A stretch of 64,000 nt of DNA from Gemmatimonadaceae bacterium (GCA_051859245.1 JBHYGA010000004.1:128001-192000), one strand, 5' to 3'. Shown: positions 35,156 through 46,332, counted from the stretch's first letter. Notes: generated by a model from the sequence alone, not told the origin. Numbers and translations are program-made.

Positions 35156-35373
35156 TGAGCATTACGCAGGAACGTGCAGAACGTATTGCTCGTGCGCACG
35201 CGTGCTCCGGTTGCAAGGAGTACACATGGCGCAAAGTGAGCGTCAAGCCGAGCAGCGCCGCACTGCGCGAGTCGCTGCTGGTGGTGTGGAGTGCGTCGCT
35301 TAAATGCGGGATTTGCGGGAACGAGCAAGAGCTCGGGATCGACGACGACGGGGATATTGTTTTTGAGGGGTAG
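35155..35373 (+). CDS. Small four-Cys zinc-ribbon-like protein
   Basis: 72 aa, CSGC..CGIC. Start overlaps the SPFH stop (TGATG). Confidence 0.7.
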   Translation: MSITQERAERIARAHACSGCKEYTWRKVSVKPSSAALRESLLVVWSASLKCGICGNEQELGIDDDGDIVFEG

Positions 35374-36346
35374 TGCGCGTCGCGGCTCTCGGCGCGGTGC
35401 AACTGTCCTGACTTTCGTGAGCATAGCGCTCTTGGCGTGCGGTGGCACACCCGACACATCCGGCCCACCGCCAACGGCCACACGTTCCGCGCGCATCGTG
35501 ATCTCGGCGCCGGATACGATTGCGGCGTCAACACGCACACCGATTTCCGCGCGTCTCGTTGACAGCACGGGCGCGACCATCGCCGGTGGCAGCTTTGTGT
35601 TCACCGTTGAGGAAGGCGCGCAGTACGCATCGGTGTCGATCAACAGCGAACTCGCGGGAGCACCGTTTGTCACGGTTCAGCCGCGTGCTGTACGCGTCGC
35701 CGTGCAGGTGAACGACGTGCCGAACAATGTGGTGTTGCAAGAACGAACCGTGAGCAAGGCCGTGGCCGTGATAAGCCGCATTGCGTCCATGCGCCCGGTC
35801 GTGAGCGCGACGTCGTTGCTCACTGGCGACACGGCGCGCCTCACGTTATCGACCGTGTTCCGTGCCGGTGCAGAATCCGGTCCGCCGCGCGACATGCTGC
35901 TCTGGTATGTGGACAGCGAGTTTGCAGCGCTCGACAACACCGGCGTTGTTGTGGCCCGCGTGATGCCGTCGCTCTTGCCCCGCACCGCGCGCATCTGGGC
36001 GCGTACCGAAGGTGTACTCAGCGACACTGCGTTGCTCACTCTCGTGCCACCACCGGCGGTGGAGCGTTTTCAGGTGCGCACCGTTCCAGACGGTTTGTCG
36101 AACACGCTTAAGGTCGGTACGTCACGCCTGTACGACGTCGTGTTCATTGGTGCAGGCGGAGCGGTGCTACCATCGCCGCGGTACTCGCGTGCTGATCTGC
36201 TCTCGCAGGATCAGGTCACGGGTATCACGGCCGGTAACACCGTGTTCTGCGAGATTCCGGGCGTGAGTGAGGTCGAGGTGTTCTACCCAAAGCGCGACGG
36301 CGAGAATCCCGTGCGGTTCGCCTTCAACGTGACGTGTGTCCCGTAA
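35363..36346 (+). CDS. Hypothetical lipoprotein with Ig-like beta domains
   Basis: Lipobox LLAC, beta-rich sequence. Start uncertain (35357-35417). Confidence 0.55.
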   Translation: MRGSARRGSRRGATVLTFVSIALLACGGTPDTSGPPPTATRSARIVISAPDTIAASTRTPISARLVDSTGATIAGGSFVFTVEEGAQYASVSINSELAGAPFVTVQPRAVRVAVQVNDVPNNVVLQERTVSKAVAVISRIASMRPVVSATSLLTGDTARLTLSTVFRAGAESGPPRDMLLWYVDSEFAALDNTGVVVARVMPSLLPRTARIWARTEGVLSDTALLTLVPPPAVERFQVRTVPDGLSNTLKVGTSRLYDVVFIGAGGAVLPSPRYSRADLLSQDQVTGITAGNTVFCEIPGVSEVEVFYPKRDGENPVRFAFNVTCVP

Positions 36347-36381: not shown

Positions 36382-36948
36382 TCAAAACGCGATCCCAATT
36401 CCGAAGTATGGATTCCACGACGCCAGTGTTCCGTAGCGCGGTCTGATTTCGTAGCGCAGTGAGAGCCCAGGTGCATCTGGTTCGCCGAAGTGCGCGCGCA
36501 CTCCATAAATGCCGCTCACCCATCCGCCGCCATTCACTCTGCCAAACTCTGACACGCTGCCACCGTATTCATGCCAGAACCAGGAGCCGGCGATGGATGC
36601 GGACGCGAACAGCTGTGCGTTACGAATGTGCACCGGTGGACTTTCCAAACCCAGTCGTGCGGTGCCCATGTCTGTGCGCCGTGTTCCTGTTCCGCCCGGC
36701 ACGGACCGGTCTTGCAGGTTGAAGGTGCCCCCAATACCGGAAATCACGCGAACTCCCGCTACTTGGAAGAAGTCCGCCTGAATCAGCGCCGTTGTCACCA
36801 GGTGCGCGCGCGAGATGTTTGAAAAGTGCCCAACACCGGCATCTACAACGAGGCCGGCATGCTGCGCCTCAAGCGGCGGTGTGATGCCAACGAGAGCAGC
36901 GAGTAACACACACGGCGCAGCGCGTTGTATCCGATAGCGCGCAGTCAC
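36382..36948 (-). CDS. Hypothetical small outer-membrane beta-barrel-like protein
   Basis: Signal peptide ..LEA-Q, alternating aromatic/Gly strands, C-terminal YFGIGIAF. Confidence 0.6.
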   Translation of the reverse strand: MTARYRIQRAAPCVLLAALVGITPPLEAQHAGLVVDAGVGHFSNISRAHLVTTALIQADFFQVAGVRVISGIGGTFNLQDRSVPGGTGTRRTDMGTARLGLESPPVHIRNAQLFASASIAGSWFWHEYGGSVSEFGRVNGGGWVSGIYGVRAHFGEPDAPGLSLRYEIRPRYGTLASWNPYFGIGIAF

Positions 36949-39175: not shown

Positions 39176-39709
39176 TTAGTGCGGCGGCGCCGGTTCCAGC
39201 CGCAGCAGCGTTGTTGGCGGTGGCGGCGTGGTAACGTTTGGTGCAATCCAGATCACGTCCACCGCGTACACACCGGCAGCCTGCGTTGTGGACAACGTCA
39301 CGCGCTCCGCGCTCCAGGACACCAGTTGGCCGCTGGCGTCAACAATCTGCCAGTCCGGGCCGGGGGCGCCGGCTTCGACCACCAGACGAGCCGGCACATT
39401 GCTGCGCACATCCACCGTGGCGATCCAGGCGCGTTGCGCGAGCTGCGCCGTGGCCGCGTCACCCAGCCGCTCACGCATCAGCGACACACCGGGCCGTGAA
39501 TGTGATGAAATTGCCGTCCGTGTGACGATCGGGACGCTACCCACGAGGGTGTGACGCACCGTATGTAGCGGCGATCCTGCAGCTTGTGCACCGCTCGCCC
39601 GTGGCGCCAACGCCACGATGGCCAGCGCCAGCCACACGCCGGCCAGGCCAACGTGCCTGTGCGGCGCGGCGGGAGGTGCGAATCGGCGGGAGGAACAGAC
39701 AGAGCTCAT
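39176..39709 (-). CDS. Secreted divergent pilin-like protein
   Basis: Signal ..ASGA-Q. HTLVGSVPIV and VDVRSN align with HTLNAVVPTL and FDVKAN of the 45784 protein. Confidence 0.5.
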   Translation of the reverse strand: MSSVCSSRRFAPPAAPHRHVGLAGVWLALAIVALAPRASGAQAAGSPLHTVRHTLVGSVPIVTRTAISSHSRPGVSLMRERLGDAATAQLAQRAWIATVDVRSNVPARLVVEAGAPGPDWQIVDASGQLVSWSAERVTLSTTQAAGVYAVDVIWIAPNVTTPPPPTTLLRLEPAPPH

Positions 39710-39723
39710 GCCGAAGCGTATCG

Positions 39724-39738
39724 GCACAGTGCGTGCCG
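39724..39738 (-). promoter_or_regulatory. Candidate sigma54 -24/-12 promoter
   Basis: Minus strand CGGCACG-CACT-GTGC, 14 nt before the ATG at 39709. Confidence 0.5.
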
Positions 39739-39852
39739 AAGTTGAGCCTCGGCGGGTGGAAATCGCCCCCGAATTCCGGCGTTGTAACGGTAGTGCCTGA
39801 CATCATCGCCGAGGACGGCCGCGAACCGTTACCGAGCCGCACAGGCTGCAGG

Positions 39853-40488
39853 CTAAGGCGCGGTCACGTTGATCGTGAGCGGCAGGCTGTACGTGCCCGG
39901 TGGATTCGTGGCGAAGATCCACCGTACACGAAAGCACAGCTGGCGCAACACACCATTCATGCCGGCATTCGATTGCAGGAGCACACGCGGTGCGTTGCGC
40001 TGAATGGCGATCGGACTGGCGCTGAGCGGGGTCATCTGGACACCGGTACACATGTTCTCGATCGTGGACACGCCGAGGTCCACATCGGAAGCGGACTTGA
40101 ATGCTGGTCCGCTGAAGATCGGTTCGTTGACCAGCGTCACGCTGATTCCAAAGTTGGACTGCGCGCGCAACGTGGGCCCGACAATCACAATGCCGGTATC
40201 GGCGGCGATACTGAATCCGACAGACGCGGCGGCGACGCCACCCGTGAGATCGGTGGTGGTGCGATTGAGTTGCACGAGCGATTGCACGGGCAATTGCACC
40301 GATGCGGTCAGACTCACCGTGCAGGTGCGCGTCTGCCGTCGTCCCGGCTGCTGCACGTTGCAACTCGACTGCGCTGACGCGGCCGTGCTGTGCAACAGGG
40401 GCGCGAACATGATCACACAGATGAATCGTGAGTACACCGTGAATCTTGCTCGGACGGTGTGCAACACACGCTCGCTCGTTGCCCTCAT
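39853..40488 (-). CDS. Pilin-like secreted protein (paralogue of 45784-46332)
   Basis: ATGA overlap with the upstream gene, signal ..ASA-Q, N-terminal Cys pair, KSASDV, QLCFRVRW..NPPGTYSLPLTINVTAP. Confidence 0.7.
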   Translation of the reverse strand: MRATSERVLHTVRARFTVYSRFICVIMFAPLLHSTAASAQSSCNVQQPGRRQTRTCTVSLTASVQLPVQSLVQLNRTTTDLTGGVAAASVGFSIAADTGIVIVGPTLRAQSNFGISVTLVNEPIFSGPAFKSASDVDLGVSTIENMCTGVQMTPLSASPIAIQRNAPRVLLQSNAGMNGVLRQLCFRVRWIFATNPPGTYSLPLTINVTAP

Positions 40489-40904
40489 GGTTGTCGCACC
40501 AGCACAAACGCGCCCGACGTGAAGGACGCGTCGAGTCCGCTGTCGTGAAACCACGTTCCGGCAATACTGTCTCCCGAAACGCGCCCGATGTGGCGGACGA
40601 CGGCGCCATCGAGCGTTGCTTCAAACTCCATGGCGTCACTGCTACGCCGACCGACAATCAATCCGGCGACGCGCTGCACCTGACCCACCGGATCTGTCCG
40701 CCGAATGTCAAGCATACCTTCGAACCGATCGCCGCCAACGCGGGTGAGCTGCAACGCGCCTTCGAGACGCAACGCGGCGGGTAGACGCTGCTCGCCTGCA
40801 TACCGCCACTGTTCCGTGCTGCCGTTCGGCTCCAGCGAGGCGTTCACACACGCCGTCGCCGATACCAGCACCATGATCAGGAGCGCACGAGGCACGCGAA
40901 TCAT
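40485..40904 (-). CDS. Small beta-rich lipoprotein in the pilus locus
   Basis: Lipobox ATAC. ATGA overlaps at both ends. Confidence 0.65.
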   Translation of the reverse strand: MIRVPRALLIMVLVSATACVNASLEPNGSTEQWRYAGEQRLPAALRLEGALQLTRVGGDRFEGMLDIRRTDPVGQVQRVAGLIVGRRSSDAMEFEATLDGAVVRHIGRVSGDSIAGTWFHDSGLDASFTSGAFVLVRQP

Positions 40905-43900
40905 TTCCGACCCGCTGCGGCCGCGGGACGTTCCACCGGCGTTGCACGGAATACGCGCACACGCCGGGGACCGAGCAGCACGCGCACGGACTGTCGCGCG
41001 CGCTGTCCGTCAAGCCGTACCGTGGGCGACGCGCCCTGTACACTCAGCGGCTCGCGCGCCGCGGAACCGTCCACGTCAATACGATAGACACCGGGTGGCA
41101 ACGCGTCGAAGAGGGCGCGACCGTCGGGTAGTAACGTGGCGAGGTGTCGACGTCCAGCTTCATCAATCGCACTTACCGTGACACCAGCGAGTGAGAGTGT
41201 GGTGCCATCAACCACGGAATCGCGCACAATCTCAAGCTGCACTTCGACTGCACCCACGGGAACAACAGGAATATCGAGGGACCCATCGCGCAGGGCACCC
41301 GCCGTCGCGCGGCTGACCTGCGGCGCAAGCATCAACCCGAATGGCAGCGAGCGTTCATCAAGCTCGGGTATTCCGGCACCCACACGAGTGAGTCGGTAGC
41401 TGCCATCGCGATCGGTTACAACCACTTCTCCACCAATGCGCACCAGGACGCTGGCCAACCCGCGTTCGCCGCGATCACGTACACCGTTGCCATTGAGATC
41501 TTCAAACACAACACCCATGCCACGTCCACCACGCAAAAACGCGGGCGCGCCAAAACTGCGTTCAACACGCAATGCGGTGGTCCAGCCGCGCGCACCGTTT
41601 AATGCGAACGCCGGATTGCGCTCGAAATCAACTCGCACGTACGTCTGAAACGGCAACAGCGATGCCAATCCCACGCGCTGTGTGAGCACTTCCGATCCGG
41701 TGCCCAGACTCACAGTGCGACCAAGGGCCGCGTTGACATACAGTCGCTTGTCGGTGAATGGCAGCGCGATCTGCTCAGCGCGCAGCGCCATGTCGTGTTG
41801 TCCGTCGCCAAGCACCGCCGAGCCGGATCGACGCTGCACCGCGGAGTAGAAGTCAATCGTACCGAATGCAGTGGGCCACAGCAGCTGCGTCGACCAGAAC
41901 AGTTGATTCTCACGCTCACGCGGCAACCGAGAATCGAAGTACGCGAAATCTCGCTGCAACTGCGTGTACGTCGCACTGGCCGATGCCGTGAACACACCAA
42001 GACGCGTTGAGCCAAACAGTCCGGCAATCTGTGACAGCGTGGACAGACGAACGGCCTCATCACCACTGCGTGAACTGCCTATGCGCGCTTCCAGGCCAAG
42101 ACTGCTCGAACGCCCAATGCGAAACTGCGGCATGACGCCCACGCCGCTGGTCTGTTGCACCACACCCTGCTCACCTTCGTCGCTCGCATACCAGCCGAGG
42201 TAACCCAGGCGCAACGCGCCCAAGCCCTGTCCGCCGGTGAACGTGATGTCCGTTTGTGCGCGGGCAAAGGCGCGGCTTCCACCGGGTGCGTGCGTTGCAC
42301 GCAGACGCCAGTCACTGCGCGGTGAACGATTGCCAAGTTCAGCGGCGGCACCCACACCACTGCCATCGTTCCAGCGACGATACGCCAGTTCGCCGCGTGC
42401 GTCGACGCCCATACTAGCAACACGTTCGGCGCCTACGGCAAACGCATCGAGTTCAGCACGCGTAATGAGCGGATCACGCAAGTGACTGGCCGACGCGGTG
42501 TACGCGATGCCACCTCGCACCGCACGAGCGCGCAAACCGGCCAGCACACCGCCGTATTGCACAATCAGTGATCGGTTCAGACGCGATGCGTTGTTGTCCG
42601 ATTCCGCGACACCAAGCGTGAATGGCCGCGCCGCGAGTGCGGAAAGCTGCCACGCGGTGTCTCCCACCGTCGCGGACACACCGCGGCCGCTGCGCGTGAG
42701 ACCGGCCATATCACCGAAATCTGCGGCCGCGTTGCCAGCGTCAACACGCCAGTTCGGATGGATGAACGCGATTGTGGGAAACGCTTGCCCACCACCAATA
42801 CGCGAGAGTCCAGGCGCACCACCCACGGCGCGCTGCGTCCACGCGGCACTCACATTCACGCGCGAGCTGATCGGTCCGGTGAGTGTGAAGCCCCAGCTGT
42901 CGAGATAGTCCTGTCCCGGCTGCTGCACCGCGTTGTAACTCAAACCGAGCACCGGACCGAACGCGCCACCACGGCTGGCCGACAGCACTTCAACCGGCAG
43001 CGAGAGTGTGCGTGGTGCGGCGTCGTTCGATGTTGCATCATCTTTGAAACGTGCGGCGTACACCTGCACGCTTGATGCACCAGACTCGTGATCACGCGGC
43101 ACAGTGATTTCGATGTCTCGCGTGACAGTCGCGCCCGGCGCCAAGACAATGCGCGCCGATTGCTGCACACGACCGCGCCATGCCTGTGGCAGGGTGAGCG
43201 AGAGACTGACGGTATCTTCCACGTTGCCGCCATTGGCTACCACGACACGCACCGCCGTCTTTTTTCCCGGCATGGCGTGCATGGTTGGTGCAGCGGGCGT
43301 GACGCTGATCGCGCGCACCGGGGCAACCATCACATCCACGGGTACCACCACCGTTTCGCGGCGTACCGCTTCCGGGCCACCGGGCATATCGAAGCGCACC
43401 TCAGCGAGCCGCAGTGTGCCCGCCAGCGCTTTACTCGGCACCGACACACTCAACGTCACACGCGCGTCGCTGCCAACCACAATGCCGGACGTTGGCCCAC
43501 CAATCACGGCGCCAGGCGATTTGTCGACGGTGTACGTGACCGAATCGCGCGCACCAAGCGTGGCCGGTGGTGCGACGCGCACCAGATGAATGCTGCGCGG
43601 CACGGCATTGAGCAGAGTACCAGCTGCCATACGAACGCTGCCGGTGGCAGCGCTGGCTGTTCGTGGAGTCCCCGAGACCATCACGTCGTTTGGATCGGTA
43701 CTTGGCGTAACCGTCAGTTCGATCGGTACAATCACGCGATCACCGGTACCGTCGGCAGCCCAGAATCGCACGTCCGCGAGTCGGTGCACACCAACTGCGG
43801 CCGCCGCCGGTGCACGCACAAGCAGTGGCACCATGGCATCGGTACTCATGAACGTTCCGTCGCCCGCACCATTCACCGCACCGGCGAGCGTACGGTTTAC

Positions 43901-44101
43901 ATGAAAACTCACCGAATCACTGCCACGAAGCAGCGCCGGCACCGGAACACGCAGTGTAGTACTGGTTCCGGATTCCAGTGTGATGCGAATGGTTGGTGCC
44001 ACCCGAATATTCGGAGGCGCCGCTTCAAGCGCGTGCGCGAATGCGGCCGAGAACGCAAGCGAGCTGCCAAACGCGAACGCAAGTACGGCGCGCGCGATCA
44101 C
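40901..44101 (-). CDS. Large usher-like outer-membrane protein (Ig-like repeats, beta-barrel, SdrD-B-like C-terminal domains)
   Basis: GTG overlaps the upstream stop. Signal ..AHA, duplicated ~95-aa Ig-like unit, VANGGNVEDT..LAPGAT domain, amphipathic strand region, GVVFEDLNGNGVRDRGE, LPPGVYRIDVD. Confidence 0.65.
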   Translation of the reverse strand: MIARAVLAFAFGSSLAFSAAFAHALEAAPPNIRVAPTIRITLESGTSTTLRVPVPALLRGSDSVSFHVNRTLAGAVNGAGDGTFMSTDAMVPLLVRAPAAAAVGVHRLADVRFWAADGTGDRVIVPIELTVTPSTDPNDVMVSGTPRTASAATGSVRMAAGTLLNAVPRSIHLVRVAPPATLGARDSVTYTVDKSPGAVIGGPTSGIVVGSDARVTLSVSVPSKALAGTLRLAEVRFDMPGGPEAVRRETVVVPVDVMVAPVRAISVTPAAPTMHAMPGKKTAVRVVVANGGNVEDTVSLSLTLPQAWRGRVQQSARIVLAPGATVTRDIEITVPRDHESGASSVQVYAARFKDDATSNDAAPRTLSLPVEVLSASRGGAFGPVLGLSYNAVQQPGQDYLDSWGFTLTGPISSRVNVSAAWTQRAVGGAPGLSRIGGGQAFPTIAFIHPNWRVDAGNAAADFGDMAGLTRSGRGVSATVGDTAWQLSALAARPFTLGVAESDNNASRLNRSLIVQYGGVLAGLRARAVRGGIAYTASASHLRDPLITRAELDAFAVGAERVASMGVDARGELAYRRWNDGSGVGAAAELGNRSPRSDWRLRATHAPGGSRAFARAQTDITFTGGQGLGALRLGYLGWYASDEGEQGVVQQTSGVGVMPQFRIGRSSSLGLEARIGSSRSGDEAVRLSTLSQIAGLFGSTRLGVFTASASATYTQLQRDFAYFDSRLPRERENQLFWSTQLLWPTAFGTIDFYSAVQRRSGSAVLGDGQHDMALRAEQIALPFTDKRLYVNAALGRTVSLGTGSEVLTQRVGLASLLPFQTYVRVDFERNPAFALNGARGWTTALRVERSFGAPAFLRGGRGMGVVFEDLNGNGVRDRGERGLASVLVRIGGEVVVTDRDGSYRLTRVGAGIPELDERSLPFGLMLAPQVSRATAGALRDGSLDIPVVPVGAVEVQLEIVRDSVVDGTTLSLAGVTVSAIDEAGRRHLATLLPDGRALFDALPPGVYRIDVDGSAAREPLSVQGASPTVRLDGQRARQSVRVLLGPRRVRVFRATPVERPAAAAGRK

Positions 44102-44613
44102 GGTCGGTACACCGACAACGTGAGCGCAATATTGCTGGCCACAAGTGACGGCGCCGGATCTGCCCAGGCGATCCGGACCCGTAACCAGATGGTACCCGAC
44201 CACGGATCGTTCAATCCGTTCGGTATCACTGTGCGTGACTCAACACTGTTGTCGAGCTGCGTCAGCGCACGCCACGGCCCCACTGGCCCGCTGCGCCACT
44301 CTACGTCGGCGCACTGTTTCGGTCCGGTGACGGCGACGCAGCGAATCAGCACGGTGGTAATACGCGTGCTGTTCTGATTGAGCACGCTCACCGTGAATGG
44401 GACGGCAACAGAATCGGTGACAGGCCCCGTCGCACTTGAAGGCCACGCGGTGTAGTTCGACATGCGCGGCGTGGGGATGGTCACAGCGCCAGTCGTGAGC
44501 GAAAAGCCCGTACTCTGACCGTTTGCCGAACGCCACGGCGAAACGCTCCCGATCAGTAGCGTCGCCGTGAACATGCAGCGTGTAATGTGCGAAGCGATGC
44601 GCGAAGTCGGCAC
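44098..44613 (-). CDS. Minor pilin-like secreted protein
   Basis: Signal ..ANG-Q, KQCADVEW motif, terminal alternating strand IALTLSVYRP. Confidence 0.6.
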   Translation of the reverse strand: MPTSRIASHITRCMFTATLLIGSVSPWRSANGQSTGFSLTTGAVTIPTPRMSNYTAWPSSATGPVTDSVAVPFTVSVLNQNSTRITTVLIRCVAVTGPKQCADVEWRSGPVGPWRALTQLDNSVESRTVIPNGLNDPWSGTIWLRVRIAWADPAPSLVASNIALTLSVYRP

Positions 44614-45495
44614 CTACCGAACCTCGTACTCCAGCTGGCCCGCCACGAGTTCACTGCCACCAAAGTCGAGGAGCGCGAGCATCACGTAGCGTCCGGCGGG
44701 TAGCTCGGGCAACACCTGTTGCAGCATGCGCCGTGAGCCGGGCAGCACGGGAAACGTGGCGACATCAGCACGATGCGCGATTGAGTTGTCGGCGCGACGC
44801 ACTTCGATTGAGCCTTTCACAAGCAACTGCACGTCGCCAACATTTCGAAAGCCAACCAGCAGAGTAGGCGGTGCAACGTGGCGCGACTTTGTTGCGGACG
44901 GCGCGCTGGATTCCGGTGGCGGCGATGCTGGCGCATCACTGAGCGTCATCGCGTCGATCAATCCGTCGCGCAGCGCACTCGTCGATTCGCCGTACACCTT
45001 GATGCCCGTGCGTACGTTGTAGCTCAGTTGACGCCCCGCCTCCACGGCGGACGCACGATTTTCGAGGAACACAATCGACCAGCAGTTCGCCGGCACCTTC
45101 TCACCCGCGGCGAGTGAGACGCGCACGTTGGCACTCTGGCCTGGTCCAAGCACCATCGATTTCGGGAACACCTCAAGTCCTGCCGCACAGCTGTTCTTCG
45201 TGGTGTGCGCGGGAAAGAAGCGATTCGTACCCGCTTCATCGCGGTCCCAGTCTTCAATCGTGACCACGGCCTGCACGGTCTTGGCCGTCTCGTTGCGTAC
45301 CGCCACCATGCGAACTGTAGGTGTGGCCGATGGCGTGATAAACAGCTCGAGCTCGTCTACGGTGAGCTGTGCATCCGCTGTGGCGGGCAGCAACAGACAG
45401 GCCGCAGCCAGCAAGACGCGGCGCCAATCACTTGTGCGCTGCGGGCGATCGGGGCGTGGTTCCTGATTGGTGCGGACAGGCTGGCGGGCGGTCAT
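44614..45495 (-). CDS. PapD-like fimbrial chaperone
   Basis: Signal ADA-Q, VRN, IEDWDRDEAG, VFPKSMVLGPGQSANVRV, CWSIVFLE, RTGIKVY, FRNVGDV, VLPGSRR, LPAGRY two-domain chaperone pattern. Confidence 0.8.
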   Translation of the reverse strand: MTARQPVRTNQEPRPDRPQRTSDWRRVLLAAACLLLPATADAQLTVDELELFITPSATPTVRMVAVRNETAKTVQAVVTIEDWDRDEAGTNRFFPAHTTKNSCAAGLEVFPKSMVLGPGQSANVRVSLAAGEKVPANCWSIVFLENRASAVEAGRQLSYNVRTGIKVYGESTSALRDGLIDAMTLSDAPASPPPESSAPSATKSRHVAPPTLLVGFRNVGDVQLLVKGSIEVRRADNSIAHRADVATFPVLPGSRRMLQQVLPELPAGRYVMLALLDFGGSELVAGQLEYEVR

Positions 45496-45699
45496 GCGAG
45501 GCGGGATGAATGCGGTGGGGCGCGAATCGCTAAAGTTCCGCGCGCTGGTGCCGATACTTGAAACCGAGGTGTCGCGGGGATGCAGCAACTAGACGCGTCT
45601 GTGCCAGCGCGGTAACGCGGCGCGTCGGTCTTCCGCAGTTTGTGAGAGAGCGAGCCATGGCCGTAACGCGGGACGATTCGGCGGCGGCGCCGTAATCGC

Positions 45700-45734
45700 A
45701 AAAGGGGAGCCCGCAGCGTGCGCAGACTCCCCTT
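45700..45734 (-). terminator. Intrinsic terminator after the major pilin-like gene
   Basis: Minus strand AAGGGGAGTCTGCG-CACGC-TGCGGGCTCCCC-TTTT. Confidence 0.8.
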
Positions 45735-45783
45735 CAGTTCCGTCATGTGTGCATCGCGCGGACGTCAGCGCCCGCGCCGTGCC

Positions 45784-46332
45784 TTACGGAGCGCTCACGC
45801 TCACGTTCAACGGCAGCGAATAGTTGCCCGGCGTATCCGAGGCGTAGTTCCACACGATGTCAAAGCAGAGCTGCTGACGTGGCGCCGTGCCGGCCGTGCC
45901 CGTGTACACGCCAACCGCCGTCGTGCTCACCGCCGCGTACGCTCCAGCAGAACCGCATCCTGCGGCACCCGTGACTCGCGCCCAGCGAACGTCACCAGCC
46001 GACTTGGCCGCATTGGCGCCGCCGTTCGCGGTGAACGTCGCATTGACCGACGCGAGCGTGATGGAATAGCCACGATTGGCTTTGACGTCAAACAACGGGC
46101 CGGCAACCTGCTGGCCGTTGTCGAACTGTGCCGCGGTGATGTTGCCGAGCGCCGTCGTGGCGTTCTCAAGCGTGAGCGTCACGAGTGTCGGCACGACCGC
46201 GTTGAGCGTGTGACCACACGCCGCGCCACCTGCGGAGCAGCTCGGGCCGGTGAGCGCCTGGGCACTGGCGTTCGAAGACAAGACAAGACCGAGCGTAAAC
46301 ACGCCGGCAACAACTGAAAGGCGACGGAACAT
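45784..46332 (-). CDS. Major pilin-like secreted protein
   Basis: GGAG RBS, signal ..NASA-Q, SCSAGGAAC, KSAGDVRW, QLCFDIVW..DTPGNYSLPLNVSVSAP. Codon usage looks like a highly expressed gene. Confidence 0.75.
   Translation of the reverse strand: MFRRLSVVAGVFTLGLVLSSNASAQALTGPSCSAGGAACGHTLNAVVPTLVTLTLENATTALGNITAAQFDNGQQVAGPLFDVKANRGYSITLASVNATFTANGGANAAKSAGDVRWARVTGAAGCGSAGAYAAVSTTAVGVYTGTAGTAPRQQLCFDIVWNYASDTPGNYSLPLNVSVSAP

Follow-up and report, generated by a model that had tools for sequence, protein, structure and literature searches.

A probable chaperone-usher-like pilus locus in Gemmatimonadaceae from a lineage not covered by family databases

Chaperone-usher pili are known mainly from Proteobacteria. 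Seven genes for apparently exported proteins in a Gemmatimonadaceae bacterium (positions 39176-46332 of GCA_051859245.1 JBHYGA010000004.1:128001-192000, a stretch of 64,000 nucleotides hereafter called the window) raise the question whether a fibre of this kind can be built by a pilin-chaperone-barrel gene set that the family databases do not recognise. The genes are labelled A to G, all lie on the minus strand, and coordinates are counted from the first letter of the window. We consider it highly probable that the locus encodes a chaperone-usher-like pilus system of a lineage that family databases do not cover. The fimbrial assembly system proposed in an initial annotation of the window is thereby supported, as pilin A is not predicted to fold as a complete immunoglobulin (Ig)-like domain, the product of the gene at 44614 is PapD-like by sequence and the large protein models as a wide beta-barrel.

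Gene order, subunits and chaperone

The seven co-oriented open reading frames are intact, and each product begins with a hydrophobic segment, read by eye as a signal peptide and not by a predictor. B and C adjoin at 44614/44613, and four-base GTGA/ATGA overlaps join C to D (44098-44101), D to E (40901-40904) and E to F (40485-40488), exactly as initially annotated. This order was followed through a main set of 80 related loci, from which loci cut by contig ends were dropped count by count; the set may overlap with a first locus set, so that counts are not summed, and the related genomes are kin and not independent samples. All named records of the 80-locus set belong to Gemmatimonadota, the closest with 85% identity in B. 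The gene order is conserved far beyond chance: A stands upstream of B in 71 of 71 loci with room for it, D downstream of B in 70 of 70, and a pilin behind D in 46 of 49; between B and D, 63 of 70 loci have a C- or A-type gene. Gene E was present in all 49 usable loci, in 43 of them directly behind D. Thus, the search for synteny across Gemmatimonadota that the initial annotation had suggested gave a strong result.

Genes A (45784-46332, 182 amino acids (aa)), C (44098-44613, 171 aa) and F (39853-40488, 211 aa) encode one pilin family. A and F are paralogues with about 31% identity (E value 8e-12), and iterated profiles joined C to them, the C profile matching the A/F profile with a profile-profile probability of 99.2% (E 2.5e-19). 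Behind the signal peptide, A consists of an N-terminal Cys-Cys loop, a donor-strand-like extension, an Ig-like body and a C-terminal alternating strand that runs to a final Pro. Across the family the Cys pair at the extreme N-terminus is near-invariant, hydrophobic columns alternate at 19/21/23 and in the last strand, and Pro is the final residue in 44 of 51 rows. In the AlphaFold2 model of mature A (predicted local distance difference test (pLDDT) 91.4), residues 1-26 have no strand pairing in the monomer; model and alignment together predict an incomplete Ig fold with an N-terminal donor extension.

The nearest folds are donor-strand pilins. When the A model was searched with Foldseek, TLP-1a came first (E 1.2e-4), followed by CfaB, TLP-1b and then Pap, Csu and Fim subunits. 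VIA-align placed TLP-1a/b at Z 10.3/10.2 (root-mean-square deviation (rmsd) 3.3/2.9, 143/142 residues including the N-terminal strand), about 2 Z units above Csu (8.2-8.3). Look-alikes of A in the ESM Atlas occurred in clusters of Acidobacteriota, Pseudomonadota and Gemmatimonadota.

Unlike A, C lacks an N-terminal extension of about 23 residues, and its alignment to A starts only at A residue 27. Counted from the cleavage site, a landmark common to both groups was reached after a median of 20 residues in the C family (42 of 73 sequences scorable) versus 43 in pilins with the extension (74 of 139 scorable), and two Cys residues preceded the landmark in 1 of 42 and 73 of 74 of these sequences, respectively. 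Because subunits of chaperone-usher pili without an N-terminal extension are tip adhesins according to the accessible part of PMC3960871, C, which had been taken for a minor pilin, is probably, judged by its sequence, a single-domain tip or initiator subunit rather than a minor rod pilin. F, the second donor-strand-bearing pilin, may be a minor, adaptor or terminator subunit.

The family thus has three members in the locus and not four, as had been proposed. The remaining candidate, G (39176-39709, 177 aa), is a secreted protein of the closest clade only, found in 8 of 80 loci, all of that clade, and once among the 34 loci of the first set. Its profile reaches the N-terminal half of the pilins and an invariant Asn at E 0.026 (probability 1.9%). 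The score of 18.8 exceeds all 30 column-shuffled controls (maximum 13.9) but stays below the 19.5 that an unrelated chaperone profile reached against the pilin profile. As the match stands at E 0.026 only, G as a fourth pilin is unproven, and its product appears to be at most a degenerate one.

A hairpin with a 15-bp stem (45701-45735, minus strand) lies in the gap between A and B. The hairpin of the terminator annotated behind A is real (z -3.9, 0 of 200 shuffles), whereas its assignment as a terminator is doubtful, since the stem is followed by four U only and is absent from the list of a terminator scan. Nor is it general across relatives, as a hairpin with a U-run occurs in 4 of 71 related A-B gaps (3 of 11 long gaps). 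It may serve as a partial terminator or as a stabiliser, either of which would raise A relative to the genes behind it; together with the first position of the gene, it marks A as the probable major pilin.

B (44614-45495, 293 aa) is, by sequence comparison, a two-domain PapD-like periplasmic chaperone of remote relation, which ends directly behind its second domain without a membrane anchor. There are 78 close homologues, for many of which one source gives the name 'P pilus assembly chaperone PapD', and PapD_N matched 20 of 61 B homologues at E<=0.01 (best 2e-7). Against the PDB, the B profile found CupB2 at the top (E 0.044) and then FaeE (0.42), whereas the single B sequence gave no match. 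With residues numbered from window position 45375, Pro71 is invariant (61/61); a proline is described as the sole invariant residue of the chaperone superfamily in the text seen of PMC4654587. R122 and K126 are invariant too, and in the weak alignment to CupB2 these two residues, Pro71 and the G1-like strand L117-x-Y119-x-V121 all stand in register, K126 (61/61) opposite a CupB2 Lys.

The carboxylate anchors differ between classical and non-classical chaperones, the archaic and alternative ones having a conserved strand-F1 Arg (CsuC Arg89) and a domain-2 Tyr/Arg (PMC4654587, in part). In the B family, the column that aligns, weakly, to the N-terminal Arg of CupB2 holds Glu in 58 of 61 sequences. 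Under a weak column mapping that is partly assumed and not taken from structural superposition, the presumed column of CsuC Arg89 is mostly Ser (37/61) and the domain-2 Tyr/Arg column Pro (55/61), with Tyr in 11 of 24 sequences of a diverse set.

The large barrel protein and its lipoprotein

D (40901-44101, 1066 aa) is an usher-like outer-membrane protein. Its model (pLDDT 86.4) begins with three Ig-like domains (42986-44008), the third being NEW3 (PF10633). These are followed by a wide barrel (41549-42952, model residues 360-827) of 26 strand segments in which hydrophobic conservation alternates, and by two small tandem C-terminal domains (40967-41518), one SdrD_B-like and one CarboxypepD_reg-like, at the position of the usher C-terminal domains (CTDs) CTD1/CTD2. 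The first Ig-like domain duplicates the second (39% over 64 aa, window 43325-44008) and is present in 7 of 53 aligned rows only, all closest relatives. The strand count derives from DSSP segments, and a hairpin could fold into the lumen.

Among outer-membrane proteins, the best Foldseek match of D was FimD (E 2e-13). VIA-align superposed PapC over model residues 358-1022 (Z 15.7, rmsd 18.6, 442 aligned), and among the 50 rows listed the alignment ran past the barrel into the C-terminal domains, through model residues 1019-1022, in PapC/FimD chains only. Pfam, model and alignment agree that two periplasmic C-terminal domains stand behind the barrel as in FimD/PapC ushers. PapC_N found no match in D, where the N-terminus of the family carries two to three Ig-like domains including NEW3. 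An inserted plug domain is absent, judged by the loop lengths in the model: the PapC plug has 83 aa and lies within the barrel sequence (PMC3960871, PMC3394950, as far as these texts were available), whereas the longest inter-strand loops of the D barrel have 20 and 26 aa and therefore leave no room for one.

By architecture and context D is usher-like, and it stands outside the FimD/PapC family as defined. The earlier remark that it shows no FimD/PapC motif was borne out, since neither a PF00577 match nor a relevant PDB entry was found. Any match to PF00577 occurred in 2 of 301 genomes of the phylum, an usher being detected in G249; in the host genome (99.9% complete) the profile revealed no canonical usher, and one B-like gene was found there. 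A sequence link between the D barrel and ushers was sought by comparison with the PDB, with PF00577 and between profiles, and none of these revealed one.

Several results weigh against reading the locus as a pilus system with D as its usher. The predicted template modelling score (pTM) of the D model is 0.59, and the placement of its domains is therefore unreliable. Foldseek ranked a ciliary multi-Ig protein first, and the TM-score with FimD is only 0.24-0.31. VIA-align ranked MtrB first (Z 17.7, rmsd 5.2, 396 aligned), the barrel of which has 26 strands; ushers and many porins and TonB receptors scored alike, at Z 13-16. In its SdrD_B-like match, D shows a motif of generic kind that adhesins carry too. 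At the sequence level, PF00577 matched 0 of 40 D-family barrels at E<=0.1, the PDB returned nothing relevant for the barrel, and no profile match over the barrel linked D to the large proteins of DUF4402 loci. In the PDB search with the A profile, both TLP-1 chains were among four matches, but without significance (E 0.41 and 0.76). The B of the window has no PapD_N match of its own, the link of its family to PapD is weak (best PDB E 0.044), and the published carboxylate-anchor residues are partly recognisable under a weak column mapping, neither set in full. Finally, the kinship of the genomes limits the independence of the synteny counts.

The barrel comparisons in particular would suit subunits that polymerise by themselves, extracellularly or in the periplasm, in the manner of TasA or cannulae, with D as a porin or anchor only. 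TasA and cannulae are indeed among the structural neighbours of A, and D, whose barrel resembles MtrB, porins and TonB receptors at least as closely as it does ushers, has neither plug nor PapC_N-like domain. A mere porin or anchor is, however, hard to reconcile with the position of D behind B in all 70 usable loci, with the two domains kept where the usher CTDs dock chaperones, and with a donor-strand-less subunit conserved between B and D. We regard self-polymerisation as unlikely.

An even smaller probability falls to a conventional chaperone-usher locus, archaic (sigma) or alternative (alpha), that has drifted past profile recognition. The similar gene order, Csu and CfaB as next-best pilin folds and 1 of 51 pilins that grazes the SCPU profile (E 0.018) would agree with such a drift, whereas D with its N-terminal Ig/NEW3 domains, about 26 modelled strands and no inserted plug, the final Pro of the pilins, the lead of TLP-1 over Csu and the failure of PF00577 to match D, while it detects an usher in the same phylum, argue against it.

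E (40485-40904, 139 aa) was assigned to no family and is read as an accessory of this locus type. It is a conserved lipoprotein with a lipobox at Cys19; the strict pattern is found in 47 of 57 homologues, and the other 10 have a Cys behind a hydrophobic run. Some eight short strands in the alignment, together with conserved Gly and Trp residues, suggest that it is probably a small beta-barrel. A profile search gave no match, and the ESM Atlas returned only sub-threshold avidin/OAA-lectin look-alikes at low recognition. Strong E matches occurred in 24 of the 301 genomes, each of which also has a close B homologue; 21 of these had contributed to the profile, and two weak matches were found elsewhere. 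Evidence against an obligatory role of E comes from the NEW3-barrel loci L054, L061, L062, L145 and L149-L155, in which no E was detected, and from L040, L134 and the first of the L101 cassettes, in which a pilin follows D directly.

A short stalk, an afimbrial layer or a non-adhesive display or import through D with E would accord with the lack of a two-domain adhesin in the locus and with the avidin-/lectin-like look-alikes of E, weak and below the tool's reliability threshold as they are, but is very improbable beside a long pilus, as the hairpin behind A agrees, in this genome, with over-production of a single subunit and the closest solved fold is a long fibril.

For a lipoprotein that gates or stabilises a barrel, LptE-LptD is a precedent, and by analogy E could plug or stabilise D. 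Tentatively, and with considerably less confidence than we place in the pilus system itself, D may be the prototype of a plug-less usher class that is widespread beyond Proteobacteria, with a pore of about 26 strands gated or stabilised by E, that assembles TLP-1-type fibrils.

Surroundings and related cassettes

The GC content of the locus equals that of the window. It is flanked by the transhydrogenase gene pntB on one side and a yggX-like gene on the other, and the same neighbours recur in several close relatives (pntB in 11 and yggX in 5 of 104 loci tested). Pfam and NCBIfam contained no family for A, C, E, F and G; Pfam recognised parts of D (NEW3, SdrD_B, CarboxypepD_reg) and gave a sub-threshold fn3_5 match in B. 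Rfam produced one chance-level match in the window, outside the locus, and a promoter scan remained at chance level. In one DNA run, which is a possible source of the assembly and so not independent, one contig covered the stretch with zero differences. Elsewhere in the window, two convergent genes (35291-36346, plus strand; 36382-36948, minus strand) encode secreted-looking products without Pfam match, by eye a lipoprotein-like Ig-type protein and a small protein resembling an outer-membrane barrel.

B was found in 37 of the 301 genomes with the single sequence versus 70 of 301 with a diverse profile. A chaperone profile detected 10,756 representatives at 50% identity (E<=0.001), with loci mostly unchecked; one of ten chaperone representatives that were looked up belongs to Bipolaricaulia. 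Several loci deviate in gene content. L035/L036, L101 and L106 have two complete cassettes in tandem per genome, at times with one shared divergent E, and an extra pilin-family gene on the opposite strand lies just behind the operon in L032:5831-6394, L037:12294-12875 and L098:12072-12535.

A second cassette type occurs in other Gemmatimonadota (L149-L155, L061, L062) and on plasmid 2 of Deinococcus deserti (L145:5396-9783). It consists of one or two small pilin-like genes outside Pfam, a B-like chaperone and a NEW3 plus CarboxypepD_reg barrel; the chaperone of the D. deserti cassette is annotated, probably wrongly, as 'FimB/Mfa2 family fimbrial subunit'. In a third type (L156-L163, L166-L168), DUF4402 proteins flank a PapD-like chaperone and an usher-like protein of about 850 aa, which suggests that DUF4402 is a pilin family. 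The C-terminal domain pair of D is homologous to that of these large proteins (99.2%, 185 columns), one of four of which grazes PF00577 (E 0.0015).

Some B matches stand apart from such cassettes. Weak matches confined to domain 2 (L055:10466-11041, L056:10281-10721, L057-L060, L064:5588-6103) have no A, C, D or E match beside them and in several cases lie just ahead of a gene for about 900 aa that looks glycoside-hydrolase-like by eye. The full-length B of L052 has no partner genes nearby. In L165:2021-9029 (G018), a protein with two chaperone-like repeats and a weak DUF916/WxLIP match (E 3e-5) is encoded in a neighbourhood of secreted and membrane proteins where no D-like barrel was detected; this is possibly another fibre or secretion locus.

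A proposed assembly route and known systems

We propose that A, C and F would be exported to the periplasm, where B, by homology to known chaperones, would complete each incomplete Ig fold with its G1 strand. The complexes would then bind D at its N-terminal Ig/NEW3 domains and at its C-terminal domain pair, as the usher architecture suggests. Because C without a donor strand can only accept one, it would go first and form the tip; many copies of A would follow, polymerising by donor-strand exchange while passing through the D barrel, and F would act as adaptor or terminator. The product would probably be an adhesive, rod-shaped fibre similar to TLP-1 or class-5 pili. To our knowledge, every solved usher has an internal plug that gates the pore and aids subunit recruitment. 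As D has no inserted plug, its pore would therefore be gated otherwise, and an N-terminal Ig domain, conserved luminal loops and lipoprotein E are candidates.

A literature search to which subscription journals were largely closed found no description of this locus type. With a plug-less and, by its model, wider barrel in a complete operon, gating and catalysis of a pilus pore without a plug become testable, for which a Roseisolibacter agri protein and the D. deserti plasmid locus offer cultured entry points. Moreover, many pilus systems may escape usher annotation by Pfam, as the number of representatives found by the B profile indicates. For fibres of the TLP-1 fold, the structures of which came from pond water with no producer or machinery assigned to them, the locus also supplies candidate genes and a possible way of assembly.

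Among the systems compared, the DUF4402 and NEW3-barrel loci share homologous chaperones and the C-terminal domain pair with the locus described here, and the NEW3 type also the N-terminus of D. They differ in their pilin families and in that no E was detected in them, and the DUF4402-type barrel cannot be aligned to that of D. WxL/DUF916 (Elr) pili of Bacillota likewise use chaperone-guided donor-strand exchange; in the portion of the source available, their system has a membrane-anchored chaperone and sortase anchoring, lacks an usher and is confined to Bacillota (10.64898/2026.10.17.759780). Of the named families in the ESM Atlas, WxL lies closest to A (score 0.92, 167/256 features, family on 20% of the cluster), a lead only. 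Neither the WxL Pfam family in 51 pilins nor DUF916 in 61 chaperones gave a match.

With chaperone-usher pili (Fim/Pap; Csu, CupE; CFA/I, Ecp) the locus shares donor-extension pilins with one extension-less subunit, a PapD-like chaperone with an invariant proline, a barrel with two C-terminal domains and a coupled operon, as far as these features are covered in the available parts of PMC3960871, PMC3394950 and PMC4654587. It differs from them in the missing PF00577 match, about 26 strands in the model instead of 24, the lack of an inserted plug, the N-terminal Ig/NEW3 domains, the conserved lipoprotein and carboxylate anchors that appear to match only in part. The tip candidate C has a single domain, unlike FimH/PapG.

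TLP-1 (PDB 9IKJ, 9IKK) has a protomer fold with an N-terminal donor strand as in A, although the Z scores are moderate. The nearest database model to TLP-1 comes from Flavobacteriales, its fibrils are held together by donor-strand exchange from protomer n+4, and in the main text, as far as accessible, no assembly genes are named, the word 'operon' is absent, and 'chaperone' and 'usher' are confined to the reference list (PMC11494351). Plasmid searches for a genomic link to TLP-1 producers reached Deinococcus only or nothing, and a 248-aa candidate in L165 had no match to TLP-1. The TLP-1 protomers are larger (236-237 aa versus 158 aa in A) with an identity of 11-13%, and there is a weak sequence echo in the N-terminal strand and a C-terminal PG-x-Y (E 0.41). 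In all three fold searches TLP-1 was nevertheless the best structural match of A, with model residues 9/10-158 on chain residues 1-236/237. Judged by its model, the closest solved relative of the pilin is thus TLP-1, and not Csu or Fim.

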